This document shows, in pieces, positions 5,173 to 59,290 of a stretch of DNA of 64,000 nucleotides. The notes beneath the pieces were generated by a model. That model did no database searches. It saw only the letters and a list, made by a program, of their open reading frames with translations, and was not told the DNA's origin. Source of the DNA: a virus. Position numbers and translations under genes: made by a program. The stretch is taken from IMG/VR virus record IMGVR_UViG_3300028883_000004, positions 1 to 64,000 of that record; one strand, 5' to 3'. Within the stretch, counting starts at the first letter, position 1; every line of letters begins with the position of its first letter.

Positions 5173-5184
5173 GGGAGATCCGCT

Positions 5185-8125: not shown

Positions 8126-8141
8126 GAAGGAGGATTCAACA

Positions 8142-41389: not shown

Positions 41390-42144
41390 AACAAGTGCGG
41401 CAAAGGAAAACAAGGAGAGGGGATAGAGACGAGAGACTTCAGCGACTTCTTATGAAGTCTCAACTCTCCTACTGGACGACAGGTAAAATGTGGGGGAACG
41501 AGGAACTATTTACAAGGCTCAATGCCTACTCTACAAAACTTGCAAAGCGATACGAAACGAGGATACCTCTTGAGGACCTCGTTGCAGAGGGTATTTACGG
41601 AGCCTTCCTTGCAGTCGAAAAGTATCGCTGGGTATGTCAATGCGGAAAGCGACATAGACTCCCTCAGGACTTTATTGCTCATTCACTAAAGTGCAAGGAG
41701 AGCAAGGGAGTCCCAAAGATGAAAATCATCTCAGTTGTAAAGCACTACATCAGAGGATACATGAGGCATCACGTTAACAAGTGGGATAGACTCTTGCTTG
41801 CTGGTTCTGAACCAGAGTTCGATGTAGGAGAGTTTGGAGACCCGATTTATATGAGAGCTATAGGGATGAGGATTGATGATGCCTATGACCCTGCAGAGGA
41901 AGCGAGAAGGGTGGCAGAGAAGGAGGCCACCTTTAACGAATTGATGCAGCACTTTAGAAGGGACAACGAGAGGGCGTCTATGTTCCTTCTAACTCATCTT
42001 TACATAGGAGCTACGAAAGCAGAGATGACAAAGGGGCTCTCGCAGTTCTGTAACATCTCTCTGAAGAACGCAAGAGAAACTGTCAGGATATTTATGGAGC
42101 GATTGCAGGATGGTCTTGAGGAGGAGCCCTCAATCGTTTCATGA
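41386..42144 (+). CDS. sigma-70 family RNA polymerase sigma factor (phage-encoded)
   Basis: Region 2: KLAKRYETRIPLEDLVAEGIYGAFLAVEKYRW ... VVKHYIRGYMRHHV. Region 4 HTH: GATKAEMTKGLSQFCNISLKNARETVRIFMERL. A Cys/His insertion sits within region 2. Confidence 0.6.
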   Translation: MKQVRQRKTRRGDRDERLQRLLMKSQLSYWTTGKMWGNEELFTRLNAYSTKLAKRYETRIPLEDLVAEGIYGAFLAVEKYRWVCQCGKRHRLPQDFIAHSLKCKESKGVPKMKIISVVKHYIRGYMRHHVNKWDRLLLAGSEPEFDVGEFGDPIYMRAIGMRIDDAYDPAEEARRVAEKEATFNELMQHFRRDNERASMFLLTHLYIGATKAEMTKGLSQFCNISLKNARETVRIFMERLQDGLEEEPSIVS

Positions 42145-43145
42145 GCTTTTATTCTGACAGGAACACCAAACGACTGTCGGGGAGTAACCCTGAGTCAGAA
42201 AACGGAGGAAAAGGAACGATGAAGAAGTTAGGACAAAAGGACCTGGAAAAGGCGGCAGCAAAACTCGGTATCAAGGGGAGTGGACTTCCCGTTCCGGTTC
42301 TCAGAGACGAGATCGAAAAAAAGGTCCGTGAGAAAATGGCCAAAGGCGAAGAGGACGTCGTTTGTAACGATTGCGGAAATCTCGCACCGGAAGCATTCGA
42401 TTACTGCCCTTGGTGCTTATCGAGCTTTGCGGCAGACGACGAGGAGCCTGAGGAGAAGGAAAAGGGCGACGACCTGGACAAGACTCTCGACGATATCGAC
42501 AAAGACCTCTCCGACCTGGAAGGGAAGGGGAAAGGCAAAACGAAAACCGCGGCAAAGAAAGCCGCCCCGAAACAGGAAAGCGAGGAGAAGGTGACCAGCA
42601 AGAAAACGGCGAAGAAGGCAGCCCCGAAGAAAACCACCAAGAAGGCTCCGGCGAAGAAGGCCACCGCCAAGAAAGAGCCGGCGAAGAAGGCTCCCGCCAA
42701 GAAGGCCTCCAAGACGGCCAAGAAGGCGGCAAAGAGCGGCAAACCCGCAGAGCCCAAGGGGAAGGCTCCCGCGAAGAAGAAAGCCGCTCAGACGGGCGGA
42801 GACTGGACCAAGCGCGAGAAGATCGTTCCGATCATGGAAGCCGTCGAAGGAGCCCTGGTCGAGAAGTACGGCGAGAAGGAAGTCGACGGGCGTCCGACGA
42901 AAGCGTTCGTCTCCTACTGGGTTGACAACCAGCGCGTCTGCTCCCTCTTCGCTTCCGGTCGAGTCGGCTTCATGGCTCTGCCCAAGGAAGCTCGGCTGCT
43001 CAAGAAGTTCGACAAACACGTGGACTACTACGATGAGGATCAGCGGAAGGCCATGCACATCGGTACCATCGGGATCATGACCAAGCGGAATACTCCGGCT
43101 GACGTCACCGGTGAGATCGTGGCTGCTTACCTCAGCAAACTTTAA
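42141..43145 (+). CDS. multidomain DNA-binding protein: HeH/SAP-like motif, Zn ribbon, acidic stretch, histone-H1-like AKKA repeats, C-terminal domain
   Basis: LEKAAAKLGIKGSGLPVPVLRDEIEKKV; CNDCGNLAPEAFDYCPWC; KKAAPKKTTKKAPAKKATAKKEPAKKAPAKKAS. ATGA-coupled start at 42141. An alternative ATG at 42219 has GGAGGA upstream. Confidence 0.6.
   Translation: MSFYSDRNTKRLSGSNPESENGGKGTMKKLGQKDLEKAAAKLGIKGSGLPVPVLRDEIEKKVREKMAKGEEDVVCNDCGNLAPEAFDYCPWCLSSFAADDEEPEEKEKGDDLDKTLDDIDKDLSDLEGKGKGKTKTAAKKAAPKQESEEKVTSKKTAKKAAPKKTTKKAPAKKATAKKEPAKKAPAKKASKTAKKAAKSGKPAEPKGKAPAKKKAAQTGGDWTKREKIVPIMEAVEGALVEKYGEKEVDGRPTKAFVSYWVDNQRVCSLFASGRVGFMALPKEARLLKKFDKHVDYYDEDQRKAMHIGTIGIMTKRNTPADVTGEIVAAYLSKL
42522..42791 (+). 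repeat. low-complexity K/A/P-rich coding repeat
   Basis: Residues ~128-217 of the 42141 protein. Generates spurious ORFs in other frames and on the minus strand. Confidence 0.8.
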
Positions 43146-43161: not shown

Positions 43162-44460
43162 ATGAGCGGTAAACGATACATAATAGGCGGTGGACTCTCG
43201 GGGTTGATTTTTGCCTACTACAACCCCGAGTACACCGTCATCACCAGCAGCGCAGGTGGGGTCTTTGGAGACAGCAACTTCTCTGGGGTCATCGTCCTTC
43301 ACGATACTCCAGAAAATAGGAACCTGCTTGAGGACCTCTCCCTGCCTATTGTGCAGCGGCCTGTTCTGATCCTTTCCCTGGTAGGCGGCGACATCCTTCA
43401 CTCCAGTCAGGTGAGAAGGGAGGAACGGAACAAGATCAGGCTCAAGAAAATGATTACCCACGATCGATACCCAAAGACGGACTTCACAAAGGACCTTGAG
43501 ACGGGATCGCTTGAACTCTCTACAGACAGAGACATTCTCCCTACTCTGGAAGTGGAACCTGGAGAACTCGTCACGGAACTCGTGAAGAGGGTAACCATCA
43601 AGAACGGCTGCACAGTCACTCAAATCAAAGATACCTCATTGACCTACACCAGGAAGGGAGCAGGGACCGAAGAGGTGGAGTTCGATCATCTCGTCTCCAC
43701 CCTTCCTGCACCCATCTTCTGGAGTATCTACGAAGGAGCCCAGGAAGCGGCGAAGAACATGAAAAGAAGTAGCCTCAAGATGGAGGCTGCTACGGTCGTT
43801 AAGAGCGGGAGACCTCCCCTTGAGAACGAACCAGACGAGGACTTCTTTTTGTACATTCCCGATCCTTCTGTTCCTTACGTAAGATGCAAGAAGCGTCAAG
43901 GAGTCTACTTCTACGAGTTCACTGGGGAGCTTCCAGTCGGAATGGCAGGAAACCTCTTCGACGGAGACGTGAGAGGGGTCACGACGATCCCGTACGCTAG
44001 AATCTCTGACGACCTCTCGAACTTCCCTCCTTCTCCTTTCATCTCCTTCCTTGGTCGATTCTCTACGTGGAGACATCGGGACCTTATTCACGACGTGGTT
44101 AGGTTCTCCAGGGCGAAGTTTGACTTCGGGGCGATGGTCATGAGACAGGCGGCCTTCAATGCCCATTTCTTTGACTACAATAATATGTCGTTAGAGGAGC
44201 GGCAGAGATGGACCAAGGAGCTTGTACTGTGCGGGATCGACGAGTTCACGGAACTCTTGAGGGAGACCAACTGGAAGCATCATCGAGGAGGTGGAAAGGA
44301 AGTAAGTCGAGAGAGGATTCTTGAGGAGCTAATCGACTGCTTGAAGTTCACCCTCGGGATAGCTAACGTTTGGGGGATGACTCCATACGAACTGATCACG
44401 GCATTCCACCAGAAATCTGACAAGGTGGATACTCGCTACAAAAACGAACATAACGAATAG
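43162..44460 (+). CDS. fusion: FAD/NAD(P)-binding (GxGxxG) oxidoreductase-like domain + all-alpha NTP pyrophosphatase (dimeric dUTPase/MazG-like) domain
   Basis: N-terminus KRYIIGGGLSGLIFAY. FLGRFSTWRHRDLIHDV resembles the GR..Y.Y..MD end of amine-oxidase/UGM-like flavoproteins. C-terminus DEFTELLRETNWKHHRGGG...ILEELIDCLKFTLGIANVWG matches E..E....WK.W...E..D.l.F. Confidence 0.55.
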   Translation: MSGKRYIIGGGLSGLIFAYYNPEYTVITSSAGGVFGDSNFSGVIVLHDTPENRNLLEDLSLPIVQRPVLILSLVGGDILHSSQVRREERNKIRLKKMITHDRYPKTDFTKDLETGSLELSTDRDILPTLEVEPGELVTELVKRVTIKNGCTVTQIKDTSLTYTRKGAGTEEVEFDHLVSTLPAPIFWSIYEGAQEAAKNMKRSSLKMEAATVVKSGRPPLENEPDEDFFLYIPDPSVPYVRCKKRQGVYFYEFTGELPVGMAGNLFDGDVRGVTTIPYARISDDLSNFPPSPFISFLGRFSTWRHRDLIHDVVRFSRAKFDFGAMVMRQAAFNAHFFDYNNMSLEERQRWTKELVLCGIDEFTELLRETNWKHHRGGGKEVSRERILEELIDCLKFTLGIANVWGMTPYELITAFHQKSDKVDTRYKNEHNE

Positions 44461-44474
44461 GAGGCTAGAGCTTT

Positions 44475-45506
44475 ATGCCGAAACTGAACATCAATCATCA
44501 GGGCGAAGAACCAAGAGGAAAGGTCCTTGACAAAGGGAAGGCCTGGGCGGTCGAACTCTTTGACTATCGAAACGATCCTTACAAAGCGATGTATCGATTC
44601 ATCGTTGGGACATGGGGCCTTGACCCAGACGACCCGATTCCGTGGGACCCCGACCTGCAGTTCTGTCAGGACGCAATCATCGAGGCGGTCAACGGTCGTG
44701 CCCTTCCTCTCGCTCTGGAGATTCCCGCTTACACCTTTACGATGAAGGGCATCTCCAGAATCGACACTCATCAGACCGTAAGGCAGCGGGTGGGAGTAAC
44801 CTTCTCGCAGCAGTGCACCGGGGACAATGACATCCGTCATTACGACATGCTCCTTCCTCTTACGGAGTTCGATCGAATGATCGCCTTCCACCAGGGGAGA
44901 GAAGATCACGACAAAGCTCGCGCCCTGGAGCAGATCAAGCAACTGGTTGCGGCGAACGTTTCGAACGCCATGGAACTCTACGGCAGAGCACTCGACCTCG
45001 GGATGAGCCCGAACGATTGCAGGCTGTGGACTCCCGAATGCAAATCCACATACCTTCACATGAACATCTCCCTCCTCGCCCTTTCCTCCTTCCTGGGGAG
45101 GCGGCAGTGCGAGAATCAACCGCTATGCGGAATGGGACTGGAGATGGCAAAGATGGTCGAGAAGGTTCACCCTGTCTTTGCTCCTCTCCTTCGTCCCAAT
45201 TGCGACCGTCGAGGAGTATGCGGAGAGCGTGCACTGAATCATCAGTTCGGTGCAGCGATCCACTATCCCTGCGGACGACATCCGAGACCTGGAAAGGACG
45301 CGAGCGAAACGACCGTTTTCGACGACGACTACTGCACCAGAGGCACGGCAGCTTTCTACCGCGGTGAGGCGATCCTTCCCGGGGCGAAGCTCATGGTCTC
45401 TGCGGAGACGAGAACTCCCGAGGAGTTGGAGGAAGTCGCAAAGGCTTACGACACCTCCATCAAGCGACCGGATCGCACCAACGCTCTCTTCGGATTCGAG
45501 GGTTAG
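44475..45506 (+). CDS. ThyX-fold protein with a non-canonical active-site signature and a Cys-rich C-terminal extension
   Basis: VLDKGKAWAVELFDY..., ...PAYTFTMKGISRIDTHQTVRQRVGVTFSQQ and ...CRLWTPECKSTYLHMNISLLALSSFLGRR track the ThyX fold pattern, but RHRxxS appears as RQRVGV. Confidence 0.55.
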   Translation: MPKLNINHQGEEPRGKVLDKGKAWAVELFDYRNDPYKAMYRFIVGTWGLDPDDPIPWDPDLQFCQDAIIEAVNGRALPLALEIPAYTFTMKGISRIDTHQTVRQRVGVTFSQQCTGDNDIRHYDMLLPLTEFDRMIAFHQGREDHDKARALEQIKQLVAANVSNAMELYGRALDLGMSPNDCRLWTPECKSTYLHMNISLLALSSFLGRRQCENQPLCGMGLEMAKMVEKVHPVFAPLLRPNCDRRGVCGERALNHQFGAAIHYPCGRHPRPGKDASETTVFDDDYCTRGTAAFYRGEAILPGAKLMVSAETRTPEELEEVAKAYDTSIKRPDRTNALFGFEG

Positions 45507-45509
45507 AAC

Positions 45510-46103
45510 ATGCATCCTAACGGGGAAGGGATCGACGGACTGAGAGGGAGGCTAATCGAGGTTGCTCGCCAATGCTCCTCCTGCCATCTCTCTGCAAGGC
45601 GTCGGTCCCTTCCTGGTTGGATTCGAAACAGAGAGGCTAGAGGGCGACCAACGGTCATTGGTCAAAACCCAGGACAGGTTGTCCTGAAAGGCTCCTCGGA
45701 CATCCGAGGAGCTTTTCTGATTCCTTACTATGCGGCAATTGCTGAGCCAGGTGGCTCCTCTCGTATTATGTGGCGAGTGTTCAATGAGCTTGGATTGACC
45801 AGTCGTCATATCTACTCTACGAATTTGGTGAAGTGTCCGACAAAAGGGAATGCATTTCCAACTGAAGCGGCAGTCACTAATTGCAGCAAGATACTACTAA
45901 TGGAGTTTAGAATTGAGCAACCTTCTGGGCTTTTAGTCTTTGGAAAGAGGACGGCGGAGGAACTGGAGAGAGTTCTTCAAGGAACTGAGTTTGAGAACAT
46001 CAAGAGAGTGTCCCTCCCTCATCCGTACACAGTGGCTAGAAAGTTCACGAGGTGGGACGACTACCTCAGACAATTCGAATCCGCCCTGGAGGAAGTTGGA
46101 TGA
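45510..46103 (+). CDS. uracil-DNA glycosylase superfamily protein (non-family-4 motif GQNPG)
   Basis: Motif 1-like VIGQNPG. STNLVKCPT. Motif 2-like VSLPHPYTV. 197 aa. Confidence 0.5.
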   Translation: MHPNGEGIDGLRGRLIEVARQCSSCHLSARRRSLPGWIRNREARGRPTVIGQNPGQVVLKGSSDIRGAFLIPYYAAIAEPGGSSRIMWRVFNELGLTSRHIYSTNLVKCPTKGNAFPTEAAVTNCSKILLMEFRIEQPSGLLVFGKRTAEELERVLQGTEFENIKRVSLPHPYTVARKFTRWDDYLRQFESALEEVG

Positions 46104-46651
46104 TTCATGTAATAGAAGGTCCAGACAAGTCTGGTAAGAGTTCATTTGCGAAAGCCTGGAGTCAGATGAAAGGGCTCCCTCTTATCCCTCATGAGGGGAT
46201 GGAGGACATCAAAGACGGTTTAACCGATGGAGAGGTCTACTACACGACGAAGCGTAGAGACCTCGACATGTTTAGAATGGCAGAGGCTGGATTTGACTTC
46301 GTTGTAGATAGAGGGTTCGTTACAGTAATAACTTACGGCTGGGCGTTCCATCGTTCTCGTTACAATCTTGCCTATGCAAACGAACTCCTAAAAGAGCTTC
46401 ACAAGAGAGGGCTCCTGGCCCTCTATCGGATGAATACACCTCTTGAAACCGTTCTCCGCCGTTTTAAGCGCGAGGAGGAGCATTGGGAGGGTAAGGAGAC
46501 CTGTAAGCGGATATATGCCGCCTACGAGCTATTCTGGAAGGAATACGGGGCGAATCTGGACCCTTTCCTGGTTACAGGGGAGATAATCGGCGAAAAGAAG
46601 GCATGGAAGGTGGAGAGACGTGGTCAAACGGAGAGTTGTCAAGAAGTCTGA
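46100..46651 (+). CDS. tmk: thymidylate kinase-like dNMP kinase
   Basis: MIHVIEGPDKSGKSS matches the IEG.D.sGKsT P-loop of Tmk. ATGA-coupled start with GGAGGAAG upstream. Confidence 0.6.
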   Translation: MIHVIEGPDKSGKSSFAKAWSQMKGLPLIPHEGMEDIKDGLTDGEVYYTTKRRDLDMFRMAEAGFDFVVDRGFVTVITYGWAFHRSRYNLAYANELLKELHKRGLLALYRMNTPLETVLRRFKREEEHWEGKETCKRIYAAYELFWKEYGANLDPFLVTGEIIGEKKAWKVERRGQTESCQEV

Positions 46652-49589
46652 AGAGACCAAGAAGAAAGTCAGACGAGTCGTAAAGAAGGCTAATGGGGAG
46701 ACTCCAGTCAGAGATGATGCTGCGCATCTCCACAGGGTAGGTGGTGCTGCCTTCGATATGACGATGGGTACGGACGTAGGAGATAAGAGGAACATCGTTC
46801 ATGATGTAGATAGAGAGTTTGTCTCCTTTGATCCTACCGGGGTCACGAAGCCTTGGAACCCGGACAGAAGATACCTAGACGCCTGGTCGGTTAACAATAA
46901 AATATTTCTGCTGTACCGGAACCCAGAGACCGGAAGGAAGGAAGTCGAAGAGGTCCCGTACAGATACTACATTTTCGTATTGACAAAGGATGTTGAAAAG
47001 AGAGAGTTCAAACGAGTAATGGCCAAATGGAGAGGGCGTCGAATCGTAACATCAATCGAGCCCGATCCTAACTTCCCAGAGAAGTGGCATCGCATTTACA
47101 TAGACCTTTCCAAAGAGCGAGTCCCTTATTGCGACTTAACGGCTGCAAACCATCATCGTCAGAATCGAATGAAGTACACTCGCAACTCCCCTGCTCTGGA
47201 GATAGAGCGGGAACTCAGGAGACAGGCGAACGTAACTCTCTACGAGGCTGACCTTGAACCTCCAAAGCGATTCGTAAGCGAATGGGATATGGAGTTCGAA
47301 GAAGATTTGTGGTTGTTCTACTTCGACATTGAAACGGACGATCGTTTCTCAGACCTTTTTACGAACCCAGGGAAACATAGGATCGTGTCCTTCGCATGGA
47401 AGGCTTGGAACGGAAAGAAGGCCATCTGGGAGGACGGGTTTGAGATTCTCGACATCCCGAGACTTCCTCCTGCTGATACAAAACGATGGAGAGATAGAAC
47501 AGCAGAGGAGAAAGAGGAGTGCAAGGCGGCTGATCAGGCGGAGATAAAACTGCTGAAGCGTCTGAAGTTCCTAATGGAGAAGTATGACCAAACCGTAACT
47601 TGGAATGGATACAACTTCGACCTTCCTCAGGTTCTGGAGAGGATGAAGCGATTTGGAATCTCCATCAGATGGACGCATTTTTCACAAGCGGATCTGCTCA
47701 ACGTTTTTAAGCGCTATCACATGAGAGCAGGTTCTCAGGCTACATCCTACGCCTTGCAGAGTATCGGCGAGAAGGTTCTGAACAAAGGGAAGGTCCCACT
47801 CGACGGTCGTAAGATTCACGAGCTATTCGAGCACGATAGGGAGACGTTAAGGGTCTACAACATTCGAGACGTCGACTTGATTTACGAACTTGAGGAGTTT
47901 ACGGCTTACCTCTCCCTGGATAATACCTTCAAGAGAATCGGAAACTGCTGGCCCAGAGACTTCCACATCTCGACGAAGATCGACGGCCTGCTTCTGAAAA
48001 AAGGATTCAGGGAAGGCGTTCACTTCAAGACTCGAAACAGATGGGCCGATAAAGACGAGTCGGAGAAGATCACAGGAGCCTTCGTCCTTGATCCTACAAC
48101 CGGAATGCATGAGGACGTATGCAACTTCGACTTCAAGTCGCTTTATCCTTCCATGATGATTACCTTTAACATCTCGCCAGAAACTCTTGTGGCTAGGAAC
48201 AAGGGAGAGATGGAGCGACTTGTAGAGGCTGGAACTGTATCATGGGACGACGTCATCTTAGTACCAGGTAAGGGTACATATTATTGGAAGCCTGAAATTC
48301 GAAAGGGATACATCCCGCAGATGTTTGAGTACACTCTTTTGAGACGCAAGAAGTACACAAACCTTCAGGCTGAGGAGAAGGTTGGTTCGGATAAGTTCCT
48401 TTTGTACTATCGCCTTGCCTACGGTTACAAACGACTTGGTCTCTCCTTCTACGGTGAACTTGCAAACCCGCAGTCTCGCTTTTATGATCCTGATGTTGGA
48501 GAGAGCGTCACCCGCTCTGGACAATACTTCACAAAGATGACAATGGCAATAGCCAGAGAGAAGTTCGGCTACGAACCTGTATACGGAGACACGGACTCTC
48601 TTTTCATTAAGATTCCACTTGATAAGATTCCTGAATTTATGGACCATGTCCATGATGTATACAGAGAGGATGTTGCAAACTGTAATGCCGATCCTGAGAA
48701 GATGACAATCGAGCTCGAATACGAGGATTACTTTTCGAGACTCCTCATGGTTCGTAAGAAGCGCTACGCAGGTATTATGTCAATCCATAAAGGACAAGCG
48801 TCTGACTTTATCGAAATCAAAGGACTGGAAATCATGCGATCTGATGTTATCCAGCCTGCTAGAGACCTTCAGCGAGAGGTGTGCACCAAATGCCTTCGCG
48901 ATAAGGATGCAACAGCCGAGGACCTTCTTGAGATTGTTCTTGCAATGAAGAGAAAGGTTTACAATCTAGGGTTAGACGAGGACTCTGTCATTCAGTCAAA
49001 GGGACTTCAGAAGGACATAAAAGACTACGCGGCGAAGTCTCCCCATGTTAAGGTCGCCCAGTGGATTCTGGATAACGGTTATGAATACTTCGTAGGCATG
49101 AAGGTCCCGTTCGTAATGATTAAACCAGAGAAGGCTCCAAAGAGCTTCTGGGAGGAGAAGGAGGATGTTGAGACTGGCGAGATGATTCTTGCTCCTCCAG
49201 AGGTTAAAGGACAGTTTGCCATCTACGCCGGAATATGGAAACCCGAGATGGAATACGACCAAGACTTCTACTGGGATCATCTCGTTTATCCGGCGACGCT
49301 AAGAGTTCTTGAGAAGGCATTTCCAGAACACGACTGGATTCAGTACAAAGCTGATGAGCAGGCCCGTAGACAGCGAAAGGTTGACATCCTTCTTCGTAAA
49401 CTGGGTAGACTCAAAAAGAGAGAACGTGCAAAGGCAGCTATTGATAAGTTTGTGGAGAGCATCGCCTCATTAAAAAAGAACCCATGGAGCCTTAACGAAC
49501 AGCAAAAGACAACCATCCGCAGAGCCTACGCCCTGGTGGCAAAGCGCGAGGATGCAGGACCTAAGAAGTTGAAGAAGAAAGTCAGATGA
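46620..49589 (+). CDS. polB: family B DNA polymerase
   Basis: Exo I FYFDIETDD, Exo II WNGYNFDLPQV, Exo III YNIRDVDLIYEL, motif A DFKSLYPSMMITFNISPET, motif B KRLGLSFYGELA, motif C VYGDTDSLFI. GTG start after GGAG. N-terminal MVKRRVVKK...VRRVVKK. Confidence 0.9.
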   Translation: MVKRRVVKKSEETKKKVRRVVKKANGETPVRDDAAHLHRVGGAAFDMTMGTDVGDKRNIVHDVDREFVSFDPTGVTKPWNPDRRYLDAWSVNNKIFLLYRNPETGRKEVEEVPYRYYIFVLTKDVEKREFKRVMAKWRGRRIVTSIEPDPNFPEKWHRIYIDLSKERVPYCDLTAANHHRQNRMKYTRNSPALEIERELRRQANVTLYEADLEPPKRFVSEWDMEFEEDLWLFYFDIETDDRFSDLFTNPGKHRIVSFAWKAWNGKKAIWEDGFEILDIPRLPPADTKRWRDRTAEEKEECKAADQAEIKLLKRLKFLMEKYDQTVTWNGYNFDLPQVLERMKRFGISIRWTHFSQADLLNVFKRYHMRAGSQATSYALQSIGEKVLNKGKVPLDGRKIHELFEHDRETLRVYNIRDVDLIYELEEFTAYLSLDNTFKRIGNCWPRDFHISTKIDGLLLKKGFREGVHFKTRNRWADKDESEKITGAFVLDPTTGMHEDVCNFDFKSLYPSMMITFNISPETLVARNKGEMERLVEAGTVSWDDVILVPGKGTYYWKPEIRKGYIPQMFEYTLLRRKKYTNLQAEEKVGSDKFLLYYRLAYGYKRLGLSFYGELANPQSRFYDPDVGESVTRSGQYFTKMTMAIAREKFGYEPVYGDTDSLFIKIPLDKIPEFMDHVHDVYREDVANCNADPEKMTIELEYEDYFSRLLMVRKKRYAGIMSIHKGQASDFIEIKGLEIMRSDVIQPARDLQREVCTKCLRDKDATAEDLLEIVLAMKRKVYNLGLDEDSVIQSKGLQKDIKDYAAKSPHVKVAQWILDNGYEYFVGMKVPFVMIKPEKAPKSFWEEKEDVETGEMILAPPEVKGQFAIYAGIWKPEMEYDQDFYWDHLVYPATLRVLEKAFPEHDWIQYKADEQARRQRKVDILLRKLGRLKKRERAKAAIDKFVESIASLKKNPWSLNEQQKTTIRRAYALVAKREDAGPKKLKKKVR

Positions 49590-49626: not shown

Positions 49627-50214
49627 ATGGCGGAGAAACGGAGGGTCGTAAAGAAGAAAACGACCACTGCAGGAAAGAGGAAAGTCACCAATAGAAAGGC
49701 GGACTCCGGAAGGGCACCTACGGGAGCTTCACAAGAGTTCCCTGTGTTCGAGATCATCGACCAGGAGATGGCCTACGTTGGCGACAACTTTGCAAACATG
49801 TACGACAAACTGAAGGAGGCGTTACAACTCGACGAAAAGAGAGCAAACCTTGACGAAATCCAATCCGCTCTGGATACAGTCGAGGGATACGGTCTTGAGG
49901 CCGGTTATCTGTGGGCGGTAGCCAATAGGGAGTACGAGTCGTTCAAGCTTCATTATGACGCTACGATGCTTGACCTTTCTCTGGAGGCACAAGAGGCACT
50001 CGGTGAGATGAAGAAGGCAGGACAAATCTCCGGTCAGGTTACGATCGCGATGCAAGAGGCCTGGCTTTCGAAGAACTCCGAGACGTACCAGGAACTCAGA
50101 ACACAGAAGATCAACCTTCGCAATCAGCGAGAGGTCCTTGCAATCTTCAAGAACCAGTGGCAGTCTCGACAGGCAACCCTTCGCGCCATGAAGGATATAC
50201 TTCGGGACCGATAA
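49627..50214 (+). CDS. hypothetical protein with N-terminal KRRVVKK tag (195 aa)
   Basis: SD GAGAGGAGAG. MAEKRRVVKKK... then a helical domain. Lies between the polymerase and SSB genes, so a recombination mediator role is possible by position only. Confidence 0.55.
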   Translation: MAEKRRVVKKKTTTAGKRKVTNRKADSGRAPTGASQEFPVFEIIDQEMAYVGDNFANMYDKLKEALQLDEKRANLDEIQSALDTVEGYGLEAGYLWAVANREYESFKLHYDATMLDLSLEAQEALGEMKKAGQISGQVTIAMQEAWLSKNSETYQELRTQKINLRNQREVLAIFKNQWQSRQATLRAMKDILRDR

Positions 50215-50227
50215 GGAGGAACCACAA

Positions 50228-51361
50228 ATGGCACGTAACGAACTTACTCTTGACGAGTTCTTTGATGACGTCGAATCTCGGGGTCGCGGGGACATCGTCG
50301 ACTGGCGGGAGGAAGGAAAGACAACGGGAGCCTTCCACCCCGAATTGCGCATCTTCTACAAGCGCAAGAAACACTTTGTACCGGTCGTTGGAGACGACGG
50401 CAAGATTGCGGTCAAGGTGTTCAACTGCCCGAATGTCGAGAAGGACGATGACCTCTGTCCGATTTGCAGAGCGCGACAGGCCCTTCGAGACGACGACACC
50501 ATCGATAATGACGAGATCGTTTTCATCGCCGGCGACGGCCGCTACAAGGATGAGCGGTGCAAGGGCGAGGTGATCAACGTAAAGGGTTATGACTGGCAGA
50601 AGAACCTCGGATGGAAAACCGAGTATCTGGTCGCCTGGGTCGAACCCGGTCAGGAAAACGACACGGCTGGAATCTGCCCCATGCCTCTGGACTGTGCCAA
50701 GAAGCTCAAGAAGGAAATCAAAGGGCGGATCGAGGAACTCGGGGACAAGGGAAACCCCTTCGACTATCCCTGCTGCTTCCGCCTGGAATACGACAAGAAG
50801 GCCGCTCCTTCGCAGAAGTACAGTGCCTCCGTCTCCTCGGTCGAGGTCGATGAAGAGATGCTTGCAATCATGGAGAATGATCCTCCGAACATCGAGGGTC
50901 TGGTCGCTCCCTCTGATCCGTACGAAGTCTACGAGGCGGTGATTGACTCCTTCGTGGTTGACTTCGGAGACCTCTTCGCCGATTTTGAGGACGGAAGCGT
51001 CGCTCCGAAATCGGAGGAGAAAGAGGAGAAGGCGGAACCGGAGAAGAAGGAGAAGCGGAAAGTCGGAGGCAAGAAGGAAACGAAGAAGGCTCCGGCAAAG
51101 AAGGCTGCTCCCAAGACTCGTAAGACTCGTACGACGAAGAAGAAAGAGGAGCCCGAACCTGAACCTGAGAAGAAGGCCCCGAAGCGTCGAGTTGCGAAGA
51201 AGAAAGAGGAGCCCAAACCGGAACCCGAACCCACCGAAGAGGAGGCTGGTGAGAGCCCGTGCCCGGAATGCGGTGAGATGGCTCCCGACGACGCTACCAA
51301 CTGTCCGCACTGCGGAGCGGAGTTCGAGTACATCGAGGACGAGGACCCCTTCGCCGAGTAG
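50228..51361 (+). CDS. gp32-type single-stranded DNA-binding protein with basic linker, C-terminal Zn ribbon and acidic tip
   Basis: C67-x9-C77-x2-C80 (FNCPNVEKDDDLCPIC) has the same Cys spacing as the T4 gp32 zinc site. C-terminus CPECGEMAPDDATNCPHCGAEFEYIEDEDPFAE. SD AAGGAGGAAC. Confidence 0.65.
   Translation: MARNELTLDEFFDDVESRGRGDIVDWREEGKTTGAFHPELRIFYKRKKHFVPVVGDDGKIAVKVFNCPNVEKDDDLCPICRARQALRDDDTIDNDEIVFIAGDGRYKDERCKGEVINVKGYDWQKNLGWKTEYLVAWVEPGQENDTAGICPMPLDCAKKLKKEIKGRIEELGDKGNPFDYPCCFRLEYDKKAAPSQKYSASVSSVEVDEEMLAIMENDPPNIEGLVAPSDPYEVYEAVIDSFVVDFGDLFADFEDGSVAPKSEEKEEKAEPEKKEKRKVGGKKETKKAPAKKAAPKTRKTRTTKKKEEPEPEPEKKAPKRRVAKKKEEPKPEPEPTEEEAGESPCPECGEMAPDDATNCPHCGAEFEYIEDEDPFAE
51005..51232 (+). 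repeat. low-complexity K/E/P-rich coding region of the SSB linker
   Basis: KSEEKEEKAEPEKKEKRKVGGKKETKKAPAKKAAPKTRKTRTTKKKEEPEPEPEKKAPKRRVAKKKEEPKPEPEP. Causes several shadow ORFs. Confidence 0.8.
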
Positions 51362-51396: not shown

Positions 51397-51786
51397 ATGA
51401 AAACTCGTAAAGAGCAGGTGAAAGCGACCATCGGAAAGCTCAAGATGAAAGTCAGTCAAGGTGTTGTTGAGATGGTCATCGCTCGTTACCTGGAGTCGGT
51501 TTTCGATGCGCTTGCAGATGGTTACTCCGTGAATCTGTACCGGATCGGCAGGCTTGAGGTGATAGTCAAGCCTGCCGGTCAATTCTATTCTGGACTTTGC
51601 AAAAGATACATGCACAGCAATCCTCGAATCAGAATCAGGTTCATACCGGCAAGAGGCCTCAACGAAATCCTAGATAAGAAGATGAATGAGGGACAATTCC
51701 ATGGCAGACTCGACAAAAGCGGGAACCTCAAAAAAGAAAAGAAGGGTCGTAAAAAAGGAAGCCGAAAAAAAGGCTCCGCCCGTTAA
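51397..51786 (+). CDS. HU/IHF-family DNA-binding protein with basic C-terminal tail
   Basis: VVEMVIARYLESVFDALADGYSVNLYRIGRLEVIVKPAG...NPRIRIRFIPARGLNEIL fits the HU fold pattern (G.f.v..r.ar...NP.t...i.f.p...l). Confidence 0.7.
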   Translation: MKTRKEQVKATIGKLKMKVSQGVVEMVIARYLESVFDALADGYSVNLYRIGRLEVIVKPAGQFYSGLCKRYMHSNPRIRIRFIPARGLNEILDKKMNEGQFHGRLDKSGNLKKEKKGRKKGSRKKGSAR

Positions 51787-52885
51787 ACCTTATCGACCCA
51801 CTGCTCCTGGTTCTGGAAAGCTCATAGACGAGATGAAGGCGGTCACTCAAGACCTTGTGCGGGTTACTCCGCTGAACAAGGTTCCGCCGACTGTGGTTGT
51901 GCCTACCTTCTTTGCTGGATTCAATAGAGCGACGAGAGTAGGCGGAGCCCCGAGTCGGCGGATTATGATTATTCATGGACCGTCTGGAGAGGGGAAGTCT
52001 GTCTTTGCAGCCGGCCTTCTTACCTCTGCGGCAATCTACGGGCACATCCCGCTTTATGTAGACGCTGAGCATGCCACCGACCCAGATTGGTGGATGAAGC
52101 TAAACGTTCCAAACTGGCTTCCGTTCTACAGACCGGAGACATACGAGGAGGCTTACGCGAATATAAACAAGGCCATCATGAACTTCAAGAAAGGGAAGGC
52201 GGCTGGAACGATAGACAAGAACAGACACCTCGTTATTGTCATCGATACCATCAACAAACTCGCTCCGAAAGAGGAGATAGAGAAGTTCGGGAAAGAAACG
52301 ATCAAGCGCGGCTATCCACTGAGGGCGATGTACAACAACAGATGGTTAGACGTACTGACTCCAATCTGCGGAGTCAACGACATCCTCTTCGTGGTTATAG
52401 CCCAGGAGAGAAGGGATGCCACCGTCGAGGACGGACAATACGTTAAAGAGTACACGAAATGGAAAACCAAGGGAGGAACAGGATTGAAGTACGACTCCTC
52501 TCTGGTGGTTAGGATAACGGAGTCGACTGCTCTCAAGGAGGATATAGGCGGACAGAAGATAGAAGTTGGCTCTGGGCATAAAGGGTTCGTCATTAAGAAC
52601 AAAGTCGGATTCTGTCATGAAGGCTTCACCTTCTACACTATCTCTGTAGACGGGGGAGAGAACCCAGTCGGATTTGACTACGCAAGGGAACTTGCAGACG
52701 AATGCAAGCACATGGGTCTGATAGTTAAAGAAGGCCAGAACTTCAGACTCGACGACGATGGAGAGCTGAGAGCGGAGAAGGGACTGAAGGCCATACGAAT
52801 GGCCCTTAGAAACGATGAAAGCTTGGCGAAGCGAATGCTGGAGAGACTTCGCCAAATGACCCTGGAAGGAAAGTTGCCAGAATGA
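51701..52885 (+). CDS. recA: RecA/UvsX-family recombinase
   Basis: Walker A IIHGPSGEGKSVF. LYVDAEHATDPDWWMKLNV (compare RecA fIDAEHAlDp.ya.klGV). VIVIDTINKLAPKEEIE (compare vVDSVaaL.PkaEieG). N-terminal ...KKKRRVVKK. Alternative start at 51686. Confidence 0.8.
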   Translation: MADSTKAGTSKKKRRVVKKEAEKKAPPVKPYRPTAPGSGKLIDEMKAVTQDLVRVTPLNKVPPTVVVPTFFAGFNRATRVGGAPSRRIMIIHGPSGEGKSVFAAGLLTSAAIYGHIPLYVDAEHATDPDWWMKLNVPNWLPFYRPETYEEAYANINKAIMNFKKGKAAGTIDKNRHLVIVIDTINKLAPKEEIEKFGKETIKRGYPLRAMYNNRWLDVLTPICGVNDILFVVIAQERRDATVEDGQYVKEYTKWKTKGGTGLKYDSSLVVRITESTALKEDIGGQKIEVGSGHKGFVIKNKVGFCHEGFTFYTISVDGGENPVGFDYARELADECKHMGLIVKEGQNFRLDDDGELRAEKGLKAIRMALRNDESLAKRMLERLRQMTLEGKLPE

Positions 52886-53133: not shown

Positions 53134-53939
53134 TGAGATTTGCAGTAAAGGGAGATAGTCACCTCGGGAAGTCTATGGGGATGTTCTCCAGGACAGAGGA
53201 GATTCGTCGAGTATATAACGCAATCATCGATCGCTGCATCAAAGAGGAGGTCTCCGCTCTTGTAGACCTTGGCGACATCTTCGATGGAAACAGACCAAGC
53301 TCAGACCTCATCTCCATGTTTCTAAGATGGGTCACGAGGTTGACGGAAGCAGGGATCGATTACATAGTCACGGAAGGGAATCACGAGAAGGTTCATCAAC
53401 CAGGAAGGCGGTCGGCACTTGAGGTCCTGGAGGCTGCAAACTTTGATCCTGAGAAAGTCCACGTCTCGTCCTGGCCTGAAGTCTTTTCTATCAGACAGAG
53501 TGCACTCTGCATTCTTGTTCCGTGGGTTACACGAATAGAAGTCAAGACGAGAGAGGGAGCCTTCGAACATAAGAGTATGAGCGATTGGCTCGACGGAGTT
53601 CTAAACGAAAAGCAAATGCTTGGAAGTCTCCGCGGCTGCGACCTTCAGGAGAGGTTTCAACCAATCTACCTTTTTGGTCATGTCAACCTAAAGGGCGCGA
53701 CAGTTGGAAAGAACATCCCGTACGAGCCAGACGATTACGTTCTACCCGATTGGGTTCTAGGCGATGAGTCGCCTCTCGACGGAATCATAGTCGGTCATAT
53801 ACACAAGACTCAAATCATCCAGAGGGAGCCGGTGCCTACAATGGTTCTAGGGACTCCTCACTTCAACGACTTCGGAGAGATAGGGCACGACAAAGGATTC
53901 GTCATTATAGACACCTCCAGGGCAAGGAGGAAATCGTAA
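53133..53939 (+). CDS. sbcD: Mre11/SbcD-family nuclease (phosphoesterase core only, 268 aa)
   Basis: Motifs VKGDSHLG, DLGDIFDG, TEGNHE, GHVN, VGHIH. Start 53133 has GGAGG upstream. Confidence 0.75.
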   Translation: MRFAVKGDSHLGKSMGMFSRTEEIRRVYNAIIDRCIKEEVSALVDLGDIFDGNRPSSDLISMFLRWVTRLTEAGIDYIVTEGNHEKVHQPGRRSALEVLEAANFDPEKVHVSSWPEVFSIRQSALCILVPWVTRIEVKTREGAFEHKSMSDWLDGVLNEKQMLGSLRGCDLQERFQPIYLFGHVNLKGATVGKNIPYEPDDYVLPDWVLGDESPLDGIIVGHIHKTQIIQREPVPTMVLGTPHFNDFGEIGHDKGFVIIDTSRARRKS

Positions 53940-54385
53940 TGGTGAAGCGTCGTGTAGTGAAGAAGGGAACAGGGAAACCAAAGTCACTCTTTCCTGGTTT
54001 TCAGTTTATTCCTACGAATCCGACTCCTCTGATAAAACTGCAGGGAGACCTTCGCGAAGAGAGTCTTGAAAAGATGATAGCTAGATTCGCGAAGGAGACT
54101 CCGAGAGGAGCTATCGTCAGCATTGAGGTGAAGGTAGACGAAGAGACTCTGCCGGACCTCAAAGCCCAGGAGATAATGGAGGCCCTTCCGCAAGCGAGTT
54201 TCGTTAGACAGGTGAAGCCTGTTATTGTGAAGGGGAAAGCTCTTCGCATAGAAGGGCAGGACCCAGCACTCGGGGAAAAGGAAGCAGTCAAGAACTTCGT
54301 AAAGGAGACAAAGCCTCCTAGAGCAAAGACGGTTCTCAAGATAGCTTACGACCTTCTGGAGAGAGGAGGTCGTGATGCAGGTTGA
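53939..54385 (+). CDS. hypothetical protein with N-terminal KRRVVKK tag (148 aa), between sbcD-like and sbcC-like
   Basis: TAATG coupling, SD AAGGAGGAA. MVKRRVVKKGTGKPKSLFPGFQF... Could be a detached SbcD C-terminal/capping region. Confidence 0.55.
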   Translation: MVKRRVVKKGTGKPKSLFPGFQFIPTNPTPLIKLQGDLREESLEKMIARFAKETPRGAIVSIEVKVDEETLPDLKAQEIMEALPQASFVRQVKPVIVKGKALRIEGQDPALGEKEAVKNFVKETKPPRAKTVLKIAYDLLERGGRDAG

Positions 54386-57420: not shown

Positions 57421-58329
57421 ATGTCTGAAGTCGAAACCATATTGTTGGATGGTTCTTTCGTGGCTCGCTACGGTTACGAAGTACATAAGGAACTCTCCTG
57501 GGAATCGGAAAGAGGGAGAGTTGAGACAGGATGCCTTTACGGTTTCCTAGACACGGCGATATCATGGCGAAGAAGATTCGGAGGAAGGATCATCGTTTGC
57601 TGGGATAGAGGCTACGGAATAAGAACAGCAATCGATCCTACCTACAAGCAGAACAGAAGGGACAATCCATGGGAGGAACGAGATCGTTATGAGGCTCAAA
57701 AGAGACTCTTGATGAAGGTCCTTCCGTACACCGGGTTCACTCAAGCCTACGCACCTGAGCACGAGGGAGACGACGTAATGGTTACCCTCAGCAAGAGACT
57801 TCCAAAACCGATAATGGTTGTCTCTTCAGACTGGGACCTCCATCAGGTTATTGCTCCAGGTGTAAAGCTCCTTCGTAAGTTCTCTTCGGGAAGGGTTAGA
57901 GAATCGATCCTCGGAATAGAGGAGCACAAAGCAAAGTGGGGATTTGGTCCAGAGCACTTTCCCTGGTTTCAATCCCTCGTTGGATGTGTAGGAGATAATG
58001 TCTCTGGTGTAAAGGGAATGGGAAAGAAACGAGCTGCAGACCTCATAGAGAATCATTCAGACGTATACGAGCAGTTTGTTCTAAACGGAAACGAAGAAGT
58101 GCTTGAGGGAAGTGGTCTCCAGAAGGTTGTAGTAAACGCTTTACGAAACGGAAGGGACGATGCGCTTCGTAGCCTCAAGCTTGTTACTATGCGAGATGAC
58201 GCACCAGTGGTCTACATTAGAAGCAGATTCAGGCCTGCTGAACTTTTAGACCTTCTTGAGTACTACGGATGTTACGATCTTACAAAAGATACGAAATTCA
58301 AATGGTTCGGGGAGAATGCAATTGACTAA
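57421..58329 (+). CDS. 5'-3' exonuclease / flap endonuclease (Pol I N-terminal / T4 RNase H family)
   Basis: ILLDGSFVARYG, IIVCWDRGYGIRTAIDPTYKQNRR, PEHEGDDVMVTL, VVSSDWDLHQV, and H3TH motif LVGCVGDNVSGVKGMGKKRAADLI. Confidence 0.8.
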   Translation: MSEVETILLDGSFVARYGYEVHKELSWESERGRVETGCLYGFLDTAISWRRRFGGRIIVCWDRGYGIRTAIDPTYKQNRRDNPWEERDRYEAQKRLLMKVLPYTGFTQAYAPEHEGDDVMVTLSKRLPKPIMVVSSDWDLHQVIAPGVKLLRKFSSGRVRESILGIEEHKAKWGFGPEHFPWFQSLVGCVGDNVSGVKGMGKKRAADLIENHSDVYEQFVLNGNEEVLEGSGLQKVVVNALRNGRDDALRSLKLVTMRDDAPVVYIRSRFRPAELLDLLEYYGCYDLTKDTKFKWFGENAID

Positions 58330-59290
58330 ACGGCGAGCAGTAAAGGCTAGAACGCGAGGACGACTAAGAGATCACGAAGTGCTCTCTACAATTCGAGACG
58401 TCCTCTCGAATACTTATCTGAAAGAGGGAAAAGACTATTTTGTTGGGGAGAACATTCCAGGGGAGAGTAGGCGCGGAGACATCTTCTTTCCGGTTCCTAG
58501 AATCGTATGCATCTTTGATCAGTTTGCAGTGGAGAGAGGATGGGACATGGAATCGAGAGGATGGAAGGTCATCACTCTCGTAGACTCTTCGGAGCGGTAC
58601 ATCAAGTCTGTCGTTTACAGAATCATCAGGAAGTTTCACAAAGACTTTAGGACCTGGAACCCGAAAGACAGATGGCAGGAGATTGTAGACGAATGGGGAG
58701 AATGCTCAGAATGCGGTCTGTGTAAGGATAGACAGAACCTCGTCCTTGGAGAGTTCTCTGAGAAGTTCGACTCGTGCGAAGTTATGATTGTAGGAGAGGG
58801 ACCCGGACCAGACGAGGATGAGCAAGGAAGGCCTTTTGTTGGGAAGTCTGGAATGGCGCTTCGCAGATGGATGAAGAAGGCAGGCATTGAGGATAACTAC
58901 TTCATCACAAATGCAGTCTGCTGCTTTCCAGGGAGAGACGAAAACCGACGAATCAAACCTCCAAGTGTAAAGCACATAAAGGCATGCCGCAATAGGCTCC
59001 TTCAAACGATAGAAGTTATGAACCCATCGGTGGTGGTCAATGTAGGCGAGATTGCTCTAAAGGCCGTTATGGGAAAGGGCATGATCAAGGAGGCGCGGGG
59101 CCTTCGACAAAAGCGGATCATCAAGCGACAGAAGAAGGGATCAAGACTGCTGTACTTCAAATCGCTTACGGTTTATCATCCTTCATACATAATCAGGCAG
59201 AGAGGGAAACGCGGAAACGACCTCATGAAGATTGCAGTCGAGGACCTTCGCAGAGCCCTTCAATATGCCAGAGGGATAGCAGACGAATGA
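58316..59290 (+). CDS. family 4 uracil-DNA glycosylase with ~120-aa N-terminal extension
   Basis: CSECGLC (Fe-S Cys), VMIVGEGPGPDEDEQGRPFVGKSGMAL, FITNAVCCFP, VYHPSYI. The N-terminus (RRGDIFFPVPRIVCIFDQ...ESRGWKVITL) is faintly Vsr/DUF559-like. ATG 58316 follows GGGGAG. Confidence 0.8.
   Translation: MQLTKRRAVKARTRGRLRDHEVLSTIRDVLSNTYLKEGKDYFVGENIPGESRRGDIFFPVPRIVCIFDQFAVERGWDMESRGWKVITLVDSSERYIKSVVYRIIRKFHKDFRTWNPKDRWQEIVDEWGECSECGLCKDRQNLVLGEFSEKFDSCEVMIVGEGPGPDEDEQGRPFVGKSGMALRRWMKKAGIEDNYFITNAVCCFPGRDENRRIKPPSVKHIKACRNRLLQTIEVMNPSVVVNVGEIALKAVMGKGMIKEARGLRQKRIIKRQKKGSRLLYFKSLTVYHPSYIIRQRGKRGNDLMKIAVEDLRRALQYARGIADE

Follow-up and report, generated by a model that had tools for sequence, protein, structure and literature searches.

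Four consecutive open reading frames (ORF1 to ORF4), located at positions 43162-46651 of a 64,000-nucleotide stretch of virus DNA (positions 1 to 64,000 of IMG/VR record IMGVR_UViG_3300028883_000004, referred to here as the window), were identified, together with the family-B DNA polymerase gene PolB that follows them, as one copy of a conserved virus-borne cassette. Their adjacency is not due to chance, because 13 distinct metagenomic loci, with identities of 25-35%, contain the same parts in a conserved order. The four genes code for a flavoprotein fused to a nucleoside triphosphate (NTP) pyrophosphatase, a long protein with the ThyX fold, a protein of the uracil-DNA glycosylase (UDG) superfamily and a small P-loop nucleotide kinase. 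We tentatively favour the reading that the cassette is a paralogous pathway which would supply the adjacent polymerase with a 5-substituted dUMP other than dTMP; we regard this as the leading possibility, one that falls somewhat short of probable. It is preferred because of the paralogy of the genes, the family-wide replacement of active-site residues in the ThyX-like protein, the presence of a dedicated flavoprotein and the combinatorial nature of the accessory genes.

All predicted genes of the window lie on the + strand, and the same four ORFs were obtained when genes were called independently on the source contig. ORF1 (43162-44460, +, 432 aa) and ORF2 (44475-45506, +, 343 aa) are separated by 14 nt, with an AGGAGG ribosome-binding site; ORF3 (45510-46103, +, 197 aa) begins after a gap of 3 nt and shares a 4-nt ATGA overlap with ORF4 (46100-46651, +, 183 aa), for which the ATG at 46100 is the best start. 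PolB (46620-49589, +; Pfam DNA_pol_B, E=2e-53) starts with a GTG at 46620 and overlaps ORF4 by 32 nt. The initial annotation of this DNA had described four tightly spaced genes abutting a family-B polymerase, and their coordinates, strand and spacing were all confirmed. Its four gene identifications proved correct, and its impression that two of the members look non-canonical was borne out.

ORF2 matches Pfam Thy1 (PF02511) with 40.5 bits against a cutoff of 24.8, over residues 80-233 only, and extends beyond the ThyX fold by a C-terminal segment of about 110 aa; it remains below the cutoff of the TIGR02170 thyX equivalog model (40 versus 87.9 bits). No match was obtained when the single sequence was searched against the PDB. 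The structure model of ORF2 had a predicted local distance difference test score (pLDDT) of 77.6, low over the last ~100 residues, and its top 50 Foldseek matches were all ThyX proteins or the UMP/dUMP methylase PolB of Streptomyces cacaoi, which is a ThyX homologue and not the phage polymerase. The target-normalised TM-score against the T. maritima ThyX structures was 0.75-0.79. Six relatives of ORF2 were found by single-sequence search and at least 152 clusters by profile search; these are proteins of approximately 350 aa, nearly all of them metagenomic, and are referred to below as the long ThyX-like family.

The canonical ThyX signature RHR...S.RY is represented in ORF2 by RQR...SQQCTGDND (segment of the window protein: RQRVGVTFSQQCTGDND). 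In order to locate the changes, 120 aligned members of the family were mapped onto T. maritima ThyX. The equivalents of Glu58, Gln75, Arg78, Arg80, Arg147 and Arg174 were invariant; in ThyX, Gln75 and the four arginines serve the binding and activation of dUMP. The position of His79, the FAD contact within the RHR motif, is occupied by Gln in 114 members (Gln104 in ORF2), and that of His53, which stacks the folate, by Leu in 118, in an N-terminal part of the alignment that is less certain. At the folate site, Glu144 is replaced by Gln in 117 members and by Asn in ORF2. The catalytic Ser88 is Cys in 118 of the 120 sequences (Cys114 in ORF2), and the Tyr91 position holds Phe, Met, Asp or Trp in 119, Tyr not being among the four commonest residues and Asp being the residue of ORF2. 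Arg90 is kept in 94 members (78%); ORF2 has Asn at this position and an Arg three residues on. The family has, relative to ThyX, a two-residue Gly-Asp insertion, the Asp of which (Asp117) is present in every one of the aligned members, and the FAD-contact positions Arg165, Asn169 and His178 are also altered. Ser88 and Tyr91 have been described as strictly conserved and critical, Arg90 as conserved, and Tyr91 as the likely general acid in the breakdown of the flavin carbinolamine (PMC8316439, PMC11940539).

Judged from this alignment, the long ThyX-like family has kept the part of the active site that deals with the nucleotide and has rebuilt the part that deals with the cofactor and with catalysis. 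This is not decay, because the rebuilt residues are themselves conserved. ORF2 resembles the ThyX of T. maritima (TM0449) and M. tuberculosis in its fold, in Glu58 and in the dUMP-binding set of Gln75 and the arginines at 78, 80, 147 and 174, but differs from them in RQR for RHR, in the changes at His53, Glu144, Ser88 and Tyr91, in the Asp insertion and in the C-terminal extra segment. The divergent Thy1 protein gp130 of phage SP-15, hypothesised in the literature to be a 5-hydroxymethyl-dUMP synthase, was considered as a relative and rejected (hhalign probability 1.6%).

ORF1 is a fusion of two domains. The N-terminal domain (43162-44121, +; approximately residues 1-320) is FAD-binding, has the amine-oxidase/renalase fold and carries a Rossmann GxGxxG motif within residues 5-20 (at 7-14, with GGGLSG at residue 9). 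Neither GLF nor any other Pfam family was matched by this domain of the window protein, and a single-sequence search of the PDB with ORF1 found nothing. An AlphaFold2 model built from an alignment of 33 homologues (pLDDT 88.5) was compared with the PDB by Foldseek: the best match was the UDP-galactopyranose mutase (UGM) 4dsg, with E=3e-13, and the others included L-amino-acid, nicotine and monoamine oxidases, protoporphyrinogen oxidase and the renalase 4zcc (target-normalised TM-score 0.62). The profile of the 33 flavoprotein homologues matched only UGMs in the PDB (E=0.002, Aspergillus fumigatus UGM) and aligned with them at YxxLVST, P(Y/F)xR, GRFxxW and the R327-type Arg; two of the 33 matched Pfam GLF, with E up to 1e-4. 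On the strength of the model and the profile, the flavoprotein domain is taken to be related to UGM (Glf, Pfam GLF), with which it shares the FAD Rossmann and beta-sheet domain, the aligned motifs and the best structural and profile matches. It is unlike UGM in its length, ~300 aa against ~370-510 aa (some 80-200 residues shorter), and in having no helical bundle in front of the MazG domain in the model, i.e. no counterpart of the helical uridine-binding domain of UGM. It also differs in being fused to, or encoded beside, a MazG-type NTP pyrophosphatase and, as a rule, in being encoded with a ThyX-like protein.

The C-terminal domain of ORF1 (44122-44460, +) is an all-alpha NTP pyrophosphatase of the MazG/dimeric-dUTPase type. 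Residues ~320-418 match Pfam dUTPase_2 (PF08761) with 31.2 bits against a cutoff of 22.9, and the domain matches PHROG 173, NTP pyrophosphohydrolase (E=5e-11). It contains the acidic motifs DEFTELLRE (ExxE) and ILEELID (EExxD), which are of the metal-binding type.

ORF3 matches Pfam UDG with 43.8 bits, and its best sequence matches in the PDB are family-4 UDGs (4zbx, E=1e-4). It is like the family-4 enzymes in its cysteines 22, 25, 109 and 125, which fit the Fe-S pattern CxxC ... C-x15-17-C, in the Asn of TNLVKC at residue 104, which would face the uracil, and in the motif-B His. It is unlike them in both motifs: motif A is GQNPG (residues 51-55) and not GE(A/G)PG, and motif B at residue 171 reads HPY and not HPS. 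The form of motif A, GxNPG, is that of MUG (GINPG) and SMUG1 (GMNPG). The scores of ORF3 lie below the NCBIfam cutoffs for family 4 (NF040953, 38.5 versus 250; TIGR00758, 33.4 versus 125.3), and among 1.84 billion representative proteins it found only itself at E<1e-30, so it is nearly an orphan. In the related loci the UDG-like domain is fused to MazG and has no Fe-S cysteines, a further difference from family 4.

ORF4 encodes a small kinase of the YorR/thymidylate-kinase type, with an EGPDKSGKS P-loop and a DRGF motif. It has no Pfam match, Thymidylate_kin included, and gave only weak matches in a single-sequence search of the PDB; it matches PHROG 761, thymidylate kinase, with E=2e-9. The profile of its family matched SPbeta YorR (2axp) with E=8e-14, followed by thymidylate kinases with E=5e-8, and the closest proteins from isolates are annotated as thymidylate kinases (25-29% identity).

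The same phage carries ordinary counterparts of two of these proteins. The contig of the window reaches past the window end, and this part of it (locus L014) encodes a dCMP deaminase (L014 13967-14473), a 328-aa epimerase/dehydratase of the short-chain dehydrogenase/reductase (SDR) type (L014 14945-15931) and a canonical ThyX of 238 aa (RHRLAAYSQESQRY; L014 17576-18292), all within 3.2-7.5 kb of the window end. A canonical family-4 UDG of 324 aa (58316-59290, +; Pfam UDG) lies inside the window, with Fe-S cysteines, the motifs CSECGLC, GEGPG, TNAVCC and HPSYI and an N-terminal extension of ~120 aa, directly after the gene for a 5'-3' flap exonuclease (57421-58329). By BLAST, ORF2 has no similarity to the canonical ThyX of the phage, and ORF3 is 20% identical to the canonical UDG. 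The phage is therefore predicted to have both a normal dCMP-to-dUMP-to-dTMP route and a normal UDG besides the cassette. Since canonical copies of both proteins are also encoded, ORF2 and ORF3 are deep paralogues and not the sole copies.

Conservation of the cassette was analyzed in loci whose surrounding DNA was fetched and scanned with hidden Markov models (HMMs) built here; these carry L-numbers. No more than 10 kb separates the long ThyX-like gene from that of the flavoprotein in the 13 loci. The cassettes typically begin with MazG, either alone or in fusion with the UDG-like protein, and continue with the kinase, the flavoprotein, a variable slot, the long ThyX-like protein, a small ThyA-like protein (mini-ThyA) and the polymerase. 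The fusion partner of MazG varies: it is the flavoprotein in the window, L001, L006 and L009, and the UDG-like protein in L003, L005 and L011; the two versions of MazG align well. The polymerase that follows is PolB in L003, L005, L008, L011, L016, L018, L020 and L021, and Pol III alpha in L106 (11755-14496). A Pol III alpha-type replicase is also encoded in L006 (11205-13230); it contains an intein and a fused UDG domain, echoing the association of UDG and polymerase in the cassette.

In four loci the variable slot is occupied by an SDR epimerase/dehydratase gene, which is accompanied in L008 by a UDP-glucose dehydrogenase gene; in or beside the cassette, SDR genes were found in L008, L011, L016, L018, L020 and L107, in addition to the contig of the window. 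Two loci have in the slot a FAD_syn-like (FAD-synthetase-like) nucleotidyltransferase, accompanied in one of them by an FkbM methyltransferase, and one locus has a nucleoside deoxyribosyltransferase-like protein (Nuc_deoxyrib_tr). Combinatorial accessory genes are the pattern described for hypermodification clusters (PMC8989533).

The mini-ThyA, 145-180 aa long (approximately 165), is present between the long ThyX-like gene and the polymerase in 11 related loci, for example L003 (10344-10841), L005 (11047-11538), L008 (9787-10317), L011 (8358-8867), L009 (8673-9218) and L106 (11325-11762). It keeps the catalytic Cys of ThyA, has Asp at the position of Asn177, as in enzymes of the dCMP type, and has no equivalent of the folate-binding segments of ThyA (the region of residues 45-110 and the C-terminus). 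Five aligned members retain the RR and RS.D motifs; the L106 copy has only one Arg and has Ala at Asp169. The mini-ThyA does not show D169N, which is reported to be diagnostic for 5-hydroxy-dCMP synthases. No mini-ThyA was found by HMM search of the window and 18 kb of flanking DNA (~82 of the ~96 kb of the genome).

The flavoprotein was absent from all 80 canonical-ThyX loci analyzed in viral contigs, and the hypothesis that it is a general partner of ThyX was rejected on this ground. The cassette family appears to be essentially viral. A scan of 185,579 species genomes with sequence patterns of the long ThyX-like protein gave a single match, located on a 5.9-kb contig of a metagenome-assembled genome (MAG); these patterns are narrow and miss variants such as the RNR form of L009, so that this count is not proof of absence from cells. 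L009 itself is a contig of a Patescibacteria MAG (JBMOLC010000006.1, 1-10819) that encodes a flavoprotein-MazG fusion, a long ThyX-like protein, a kinase, a mini-ThyA, a UDG-like protein and a NUDIX protein. The cassette adjoins seryl- and cysteinyl-tRNA synthetase genes and greA. Where the two meet, the GC content falls from ~45% to ~35%, suggesting that an element has integrated or that the assembly is chimeric. No description of the long ThyX-like family, of its UGM-like partner or of the cassette was found in the literature searched.

In the pathway that we favour, the MazG/dUTPase_2 domain of ORF1 would act on a pyrimidine dNTP, most probably dUTP, and yield the monophosphate, as expected from its family. 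ORF2 would then bind and activate dUMP in the manner of ThyX and perform a different chemistry at C5, or use another source of the one-carbon unit or of reductant. The UGM-like FAD domain, which co-occurs with the long ThyX-like protein, would act as its dedicated partner, either by handling flavin or redox equivalents for ORF2 or as a nucleoside diphosphate (NDP)-sugar mutase making the donor for a later glycosylation of the base. ORF4 would phosphorylate the product, and a host NDP kinase, followed by PolB, would bring it into DNA. ORF3 might act on the DNA at the replisome, excising an unwanted base or flipping out a modified one; the open GxNPG pocket of MUG and SMUG enzymes accepts 5-substituted uracils.

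The product class would most likely be a 5-hydroxymethyl- or 5-hydroxy-type dUMP that partly replaces T and is perhaps glycosylated later. Loss of the folate-stacking His and of the Ser and Tyr that handle the carbinolamine would fit a flavin/O2 enzyme, or one in which another nucleophile traps the exocyclic methylene. A more elaborate version of this idea, which we consider unlikely, is that the whole family of at least 152 clusters no longer makes thymidylate and performs flavin-based C5 hydroxylation or hydroxymethylation, or alternative-nucleophile chemistry, on dUMP, after which the flavoprotein, the SDR epimerase and a glycosyltransferase would decorate the base. Homologues of ThyA have become flavin-dependent 5-hydroxy-dCMP synthases, and one phage cluster with such an enzyme has a predicted UDP-galactose mutase (PMC13326640).

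Several observations weigh against a second pathway. Each catalytic step, the product, the cofactor and the modification of the DNA are inferred from sequence. The dUMP-binding arginines are all kept and Arg90 is retained in most of the family, which makes a plain dTMP synthase with other acid/base residues plausible; the S88A and S88C mutants of T. maritima ThyX are reportedly still active. The simplest reading of most related loci is a split of the T4 type, in which the long ThyX-like protein would be the thymidylate synthase and the mini-ThyA the modifier of cytosine. The cassette of the window, having no mini-ThyA in the ~82 kb read, could be a remnant. The alignment of the S-x-R-Y segment also enters here: the registers given by HMMER and MAFFT are two residues apart, and the more parsimonious one was used. 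A first register, with Arg90 changed to Gly and Tyr91 to an invariant Asp, was dropped, as the second alignment shows a two-residue insertion and an Arg90 that is mostly kept. The rule that the flavoprotein goes with a long ThyX-like protein met a sole exception, L006, where a flavoprotein-MazG fusion occurs with a canonical ThyX and without the long form.

The composition of the DNA points in the same direction. CTCGAG occurs once in the window against 24 expected occurrences, and other 6-bp palindromes are depleted as well: TCTAGA (0 versus 11 expected), GAGCTC (6 versus 21) and AAGCTT (9 versus 23). The 4-mer palindromes are without exception slightly under-represented, the probable cause being the strong purine and A-over-T skew of the coding strand; palindrome statistics being confounded by this strong strand asymmetry, only the 6-mer outliers were used. 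Because a fully hypermodified genome has little reason to avoid CTCGAG, this is a weak argument against wholesale replacement of a base.

Close behind the second-pathway reading, and the strongest of its rivals, stands an ordinary but divergent line of dTTP supply and uracil exclusion, which we hold to be a serious possibility without thinking it likely. Here the MazG domain would be a dUTPase, ORF2 a working ThyX with Cys and Asp in place of Ser and Tyr, ORF4 a dTMP kinase and ORF3 a replisome-associated UDG, the second ThyX and UDG reflecting mosaicism and redundancy. The score of ORF2 above the Pfam Thy1 gathering threshold, its ThyX fold, the invariant Gln75, Arg78, Arg80, Arg147 and Arg174 and the retention of Arg90 in 78% of the family all agree with it, as do the YorR/Tmk-like nature of the kinase and the uracil-recognition Asn, motif-B His and Fe-S cysteines kept by ORF3. 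The pairing with a dCMP-type mini-ThyA in the relatives would fit a division of labour like that of T4, and the avoidance of restriction sites suggests largely ordinary DNA. The flavoprotein would be an NAD(P)H-flavin/redox helper that speeds up a slow ThyX: eukaryotic UGMs and renalase bind NAD(P)H, and 5vwt and 4zcc are among the Foldseek matches of ORF1. A UGM/amine-oxidase fold is, however, not usual for a flavin reductase, and none of the 80 canonical viral ThyX loci has this supposed helper. The score of ORF2 under the thyX equivalog cutoff also speaks against this reading. So does the presence of two thymidylate synthases and of two UDGs in 96 kb of genome, the copies having no BLAST similarity in one case and only 20% identity in the other, and the residues lost throughout the family include His53, Glu144 and Tyr91, which are important by mutagenesis (PMC8316439).

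Synthesis of a sugar donor for DNA glycosylation, with ORF2 as a plain thymidylate synthase, seems a doubtful explanation. The flavoprotein would be a minimal NDP-sugar pyranose-furanose mutase working with the SDR epimerase and a glycosyltransferase, and the acceptor in the relatives would be a modified cytosine made by the mini-ThyA; in the present phage, which has no mini-ThyA, the system would be vestigial or use another acceptor. A GT4-family glycosyltransferase (Glyco_trans_1_4/Glycos_transf_1) is encoded at 11526-12404 (+), just after the tail sheath gene (8142-11111, +). Among solved families the flavoprotein profile matches UGM alone, aligning its catalytic Arg and GRFxxW, and UGM is also the top Foldseek match; the protein is nevertheless only ~300 aa long, has no helical uridine-binding domain and falls under the Pfam GLF threshold, and its fusion to a dNTP pyrophosphatase is unexpected for a sugar mutase. 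SDR genes in or beside the cassettes of six relatives and on the window contig, together with the UDP-glucose dehydrogenase of L008, would suit sugar-nucleotide synthesis, yet several cassettes have no SDR gene nearby, and in the relatives for which Pfam tables were available no glycosyltransferase was found in the 10 kb around the cassette. The dCMP-type Asp of the mini-ThyA is in agreement with a cytosine acceptor, and a UDP-galactose mutase has been predicted in a phage cluster for cytosine glycosylation (PMC13326640).

That four unrelated nucleotide-metabolism genes merely came together in a replication operon is highly improbable: phage replication regions commonly gather such genes, and no terminator or promoter on the + strand marks off the four from their operon neighbours, but the same set occurs in the same order in the 13 loci, at the identities given above, with alternative fusions and in phages with either PolB or Pol III alpha.

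The cassette was compared with the known phage systems that modify pyrimidines. Its order of pyrophosphatase, homologue of a C5 synthase, kinase and polymerase is like that of the T4-type pathway (gp56 dCTPase/dUTPase, gp42 dCMP hydroxymethylase and gp1 dNMP kinase) and of the flavin-dependent 5-hydroxy-dCMP synthase pathway of RB69 and DLP3 (PMC13326640). Sugar-nucleotide genes in or near the cluster are another common feature, and these systems offer a precedent for flavin chemistry on a scaffold of the thymidylate-synthase type. Both of these use a ThyA-fold enzyme on dCMP, whereas the cassette has a ThyX fold that keeps recognition of the uracil type. Its core includes, unlike theirs, a UGM-like flavoprotein and a UDG-like protein; no ThyA-like gene is present in the window, and the mini-ThyA of the relatives keeps Asp169 and has no folate-binding segments.

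The clusters for thymidine hypermodification are similar in grouping a P-loop kinase, a DNA-glycosylase-like protein and a FAD enzyme with a C5 one-carbon transferase and combinatorial accessories; their components are 5-HMUDK, aGPT-Pplase/AADT, FAD lyase, radical S-adenosylmethionine enzymes and pyridoxal-phosphate enzymes (PMC8989533). In the cassette, in contrast, the kinase resembles YorR and Tmk, the fold of the glycosylase-like protein is that of UDG and not a helix-hairpin-helix, the FAD protein is UGM-like and not MnmC/DAO-like, and the one-carbon enzyme is of the ThyX and not the ThyA type. Neither 5-HMUDK nor aGPT-Pplase/AADT was matched in Pfam and PHROG scans of the cassette, and a tblastn search with ORF4 did not recover the kinases of M6, ViI, SP10 or PaMx11; hypermodification of thymidine of the 5-HMUDK/aGPT-Pplase type was rejected, none of its components having been found.

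The cassette thus shares a logic with the T4-type, RB69-type and hypermodification clusters and has no diagnostic enzyme in common with them. The initial annotation had stated that modules of the same composition underlie non-canonical pyrimidines in other phages. This part was not supported, since no described system has such a composition: the described phage modification systems use ThyA-family enzymes, 5-HMUDK and aGPT-Pplase (PMC8989533, PMC13326640). The accompanying suspicion of a non-canonical function was strengthened by the canonical paralogues in the phage, by the conservation of the altered residues over at least 152 clusters and by the conserved UGM-like flavoprotein. The alternative offered in the same annotation, a thymidylate pathway with an unusual recycling of flavin, may apply instead.

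The genome, of which the window is a part, has a size of ~96 kb and belongs to an uncultured phage with a contractile tail; besides the tail sheath gene, the window contains a tape measure gene (17562-20018, +). When the DNA of the region was searched at near identity among 50,697 phage records, nothing matched, and PolB is only ~25% identical to any polymerase from an isolate. The order of the replication operon is UvrD-like helicase, two unknown genes, the four cassette genes, PolB and UvsX-like recombinase.

Two proteins that flank the block formed by the cassette and PolB (42141-43145 and 50228-51361) have a zinc ribbon and long histone-H1-like low-complexity tracts of the KKAAPAKK type. 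The exact peptide RRVVKK occurs five times in the + strand frames of the window (46629, 46671, 49639, 51740 and 53948) and never in the three minus-strand frames. All copies lie in Lys/Arg-rich N-terminal tails of replication-region proteins: PolB (46629 and 46671), the product of the ORF at 49627-50214, the UvsX-like recombinase (51686-52885) and the product of the ORF at 53939-54385. Beyond the window, a 160-aa protein (L014 14466-14948) has the peptide twice at its C-terminus. RRVVKK may be a shared targeting or DNA-binding tag.

A distant analogue of the cassette is found in cultured phages. Pseudomonas phage LMA2 (NC_011166, L105), a PB1-like member of Pbunavirus, encodes upstream of its DNA polymerase gp65 (4638-5639), a 333-aa protein with GxGxxG and GRFATW; gp59 (6848-7765), a 305-aa ThyX with RTR in place of RHR and Ala at Tyr91; and gp57 (7961-8977), a HAD/PNKP-like (phosphatase/kinase-like) protein. 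The likeness consists in a flavoprotein homologue, an atypical ThyX and a phosphatase/kinase-like gene beside the polymerase. The similarity is much weaker than among the relatives of the window cassette, the flavoprotein HMM matching two terminal motifs only, and Pbunavirus has no MazG fusion, UDG-like gene or mini-ThyA. We know of no report of modified DNA in PB1-like phages. These phages could serve as a cultured test system for the cassette.

To our knowledge, all characterised phage pathways that build modified pyrimidines before replication use an enzyme with the ThyA fold. If the cassette makes a new base, modified thymine or uracil in DNA would arise by a second route, independent of the known one, and the cassette would be a source of new enzymes for modified nucleotides. 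A ThyX that hydroxylates C5 would be the counterpart, on the ThyX scaffold, of the ThyA-based flavin-dependent 5-hydroxy-dCMP synthases, and if the base is further decorated, widespread uncultured phages of soil and peat would carry a hypermodified replacement of thymine that is so far unknown. If the product is plain dTMP, Ser88, Tyr91 and His53 would be dispensable in a natural ThyX and a dedicated protein partner of ThyX would be revealed, an outcome that bears on the mechanism of ThyX and on its use as an antibiotic target.

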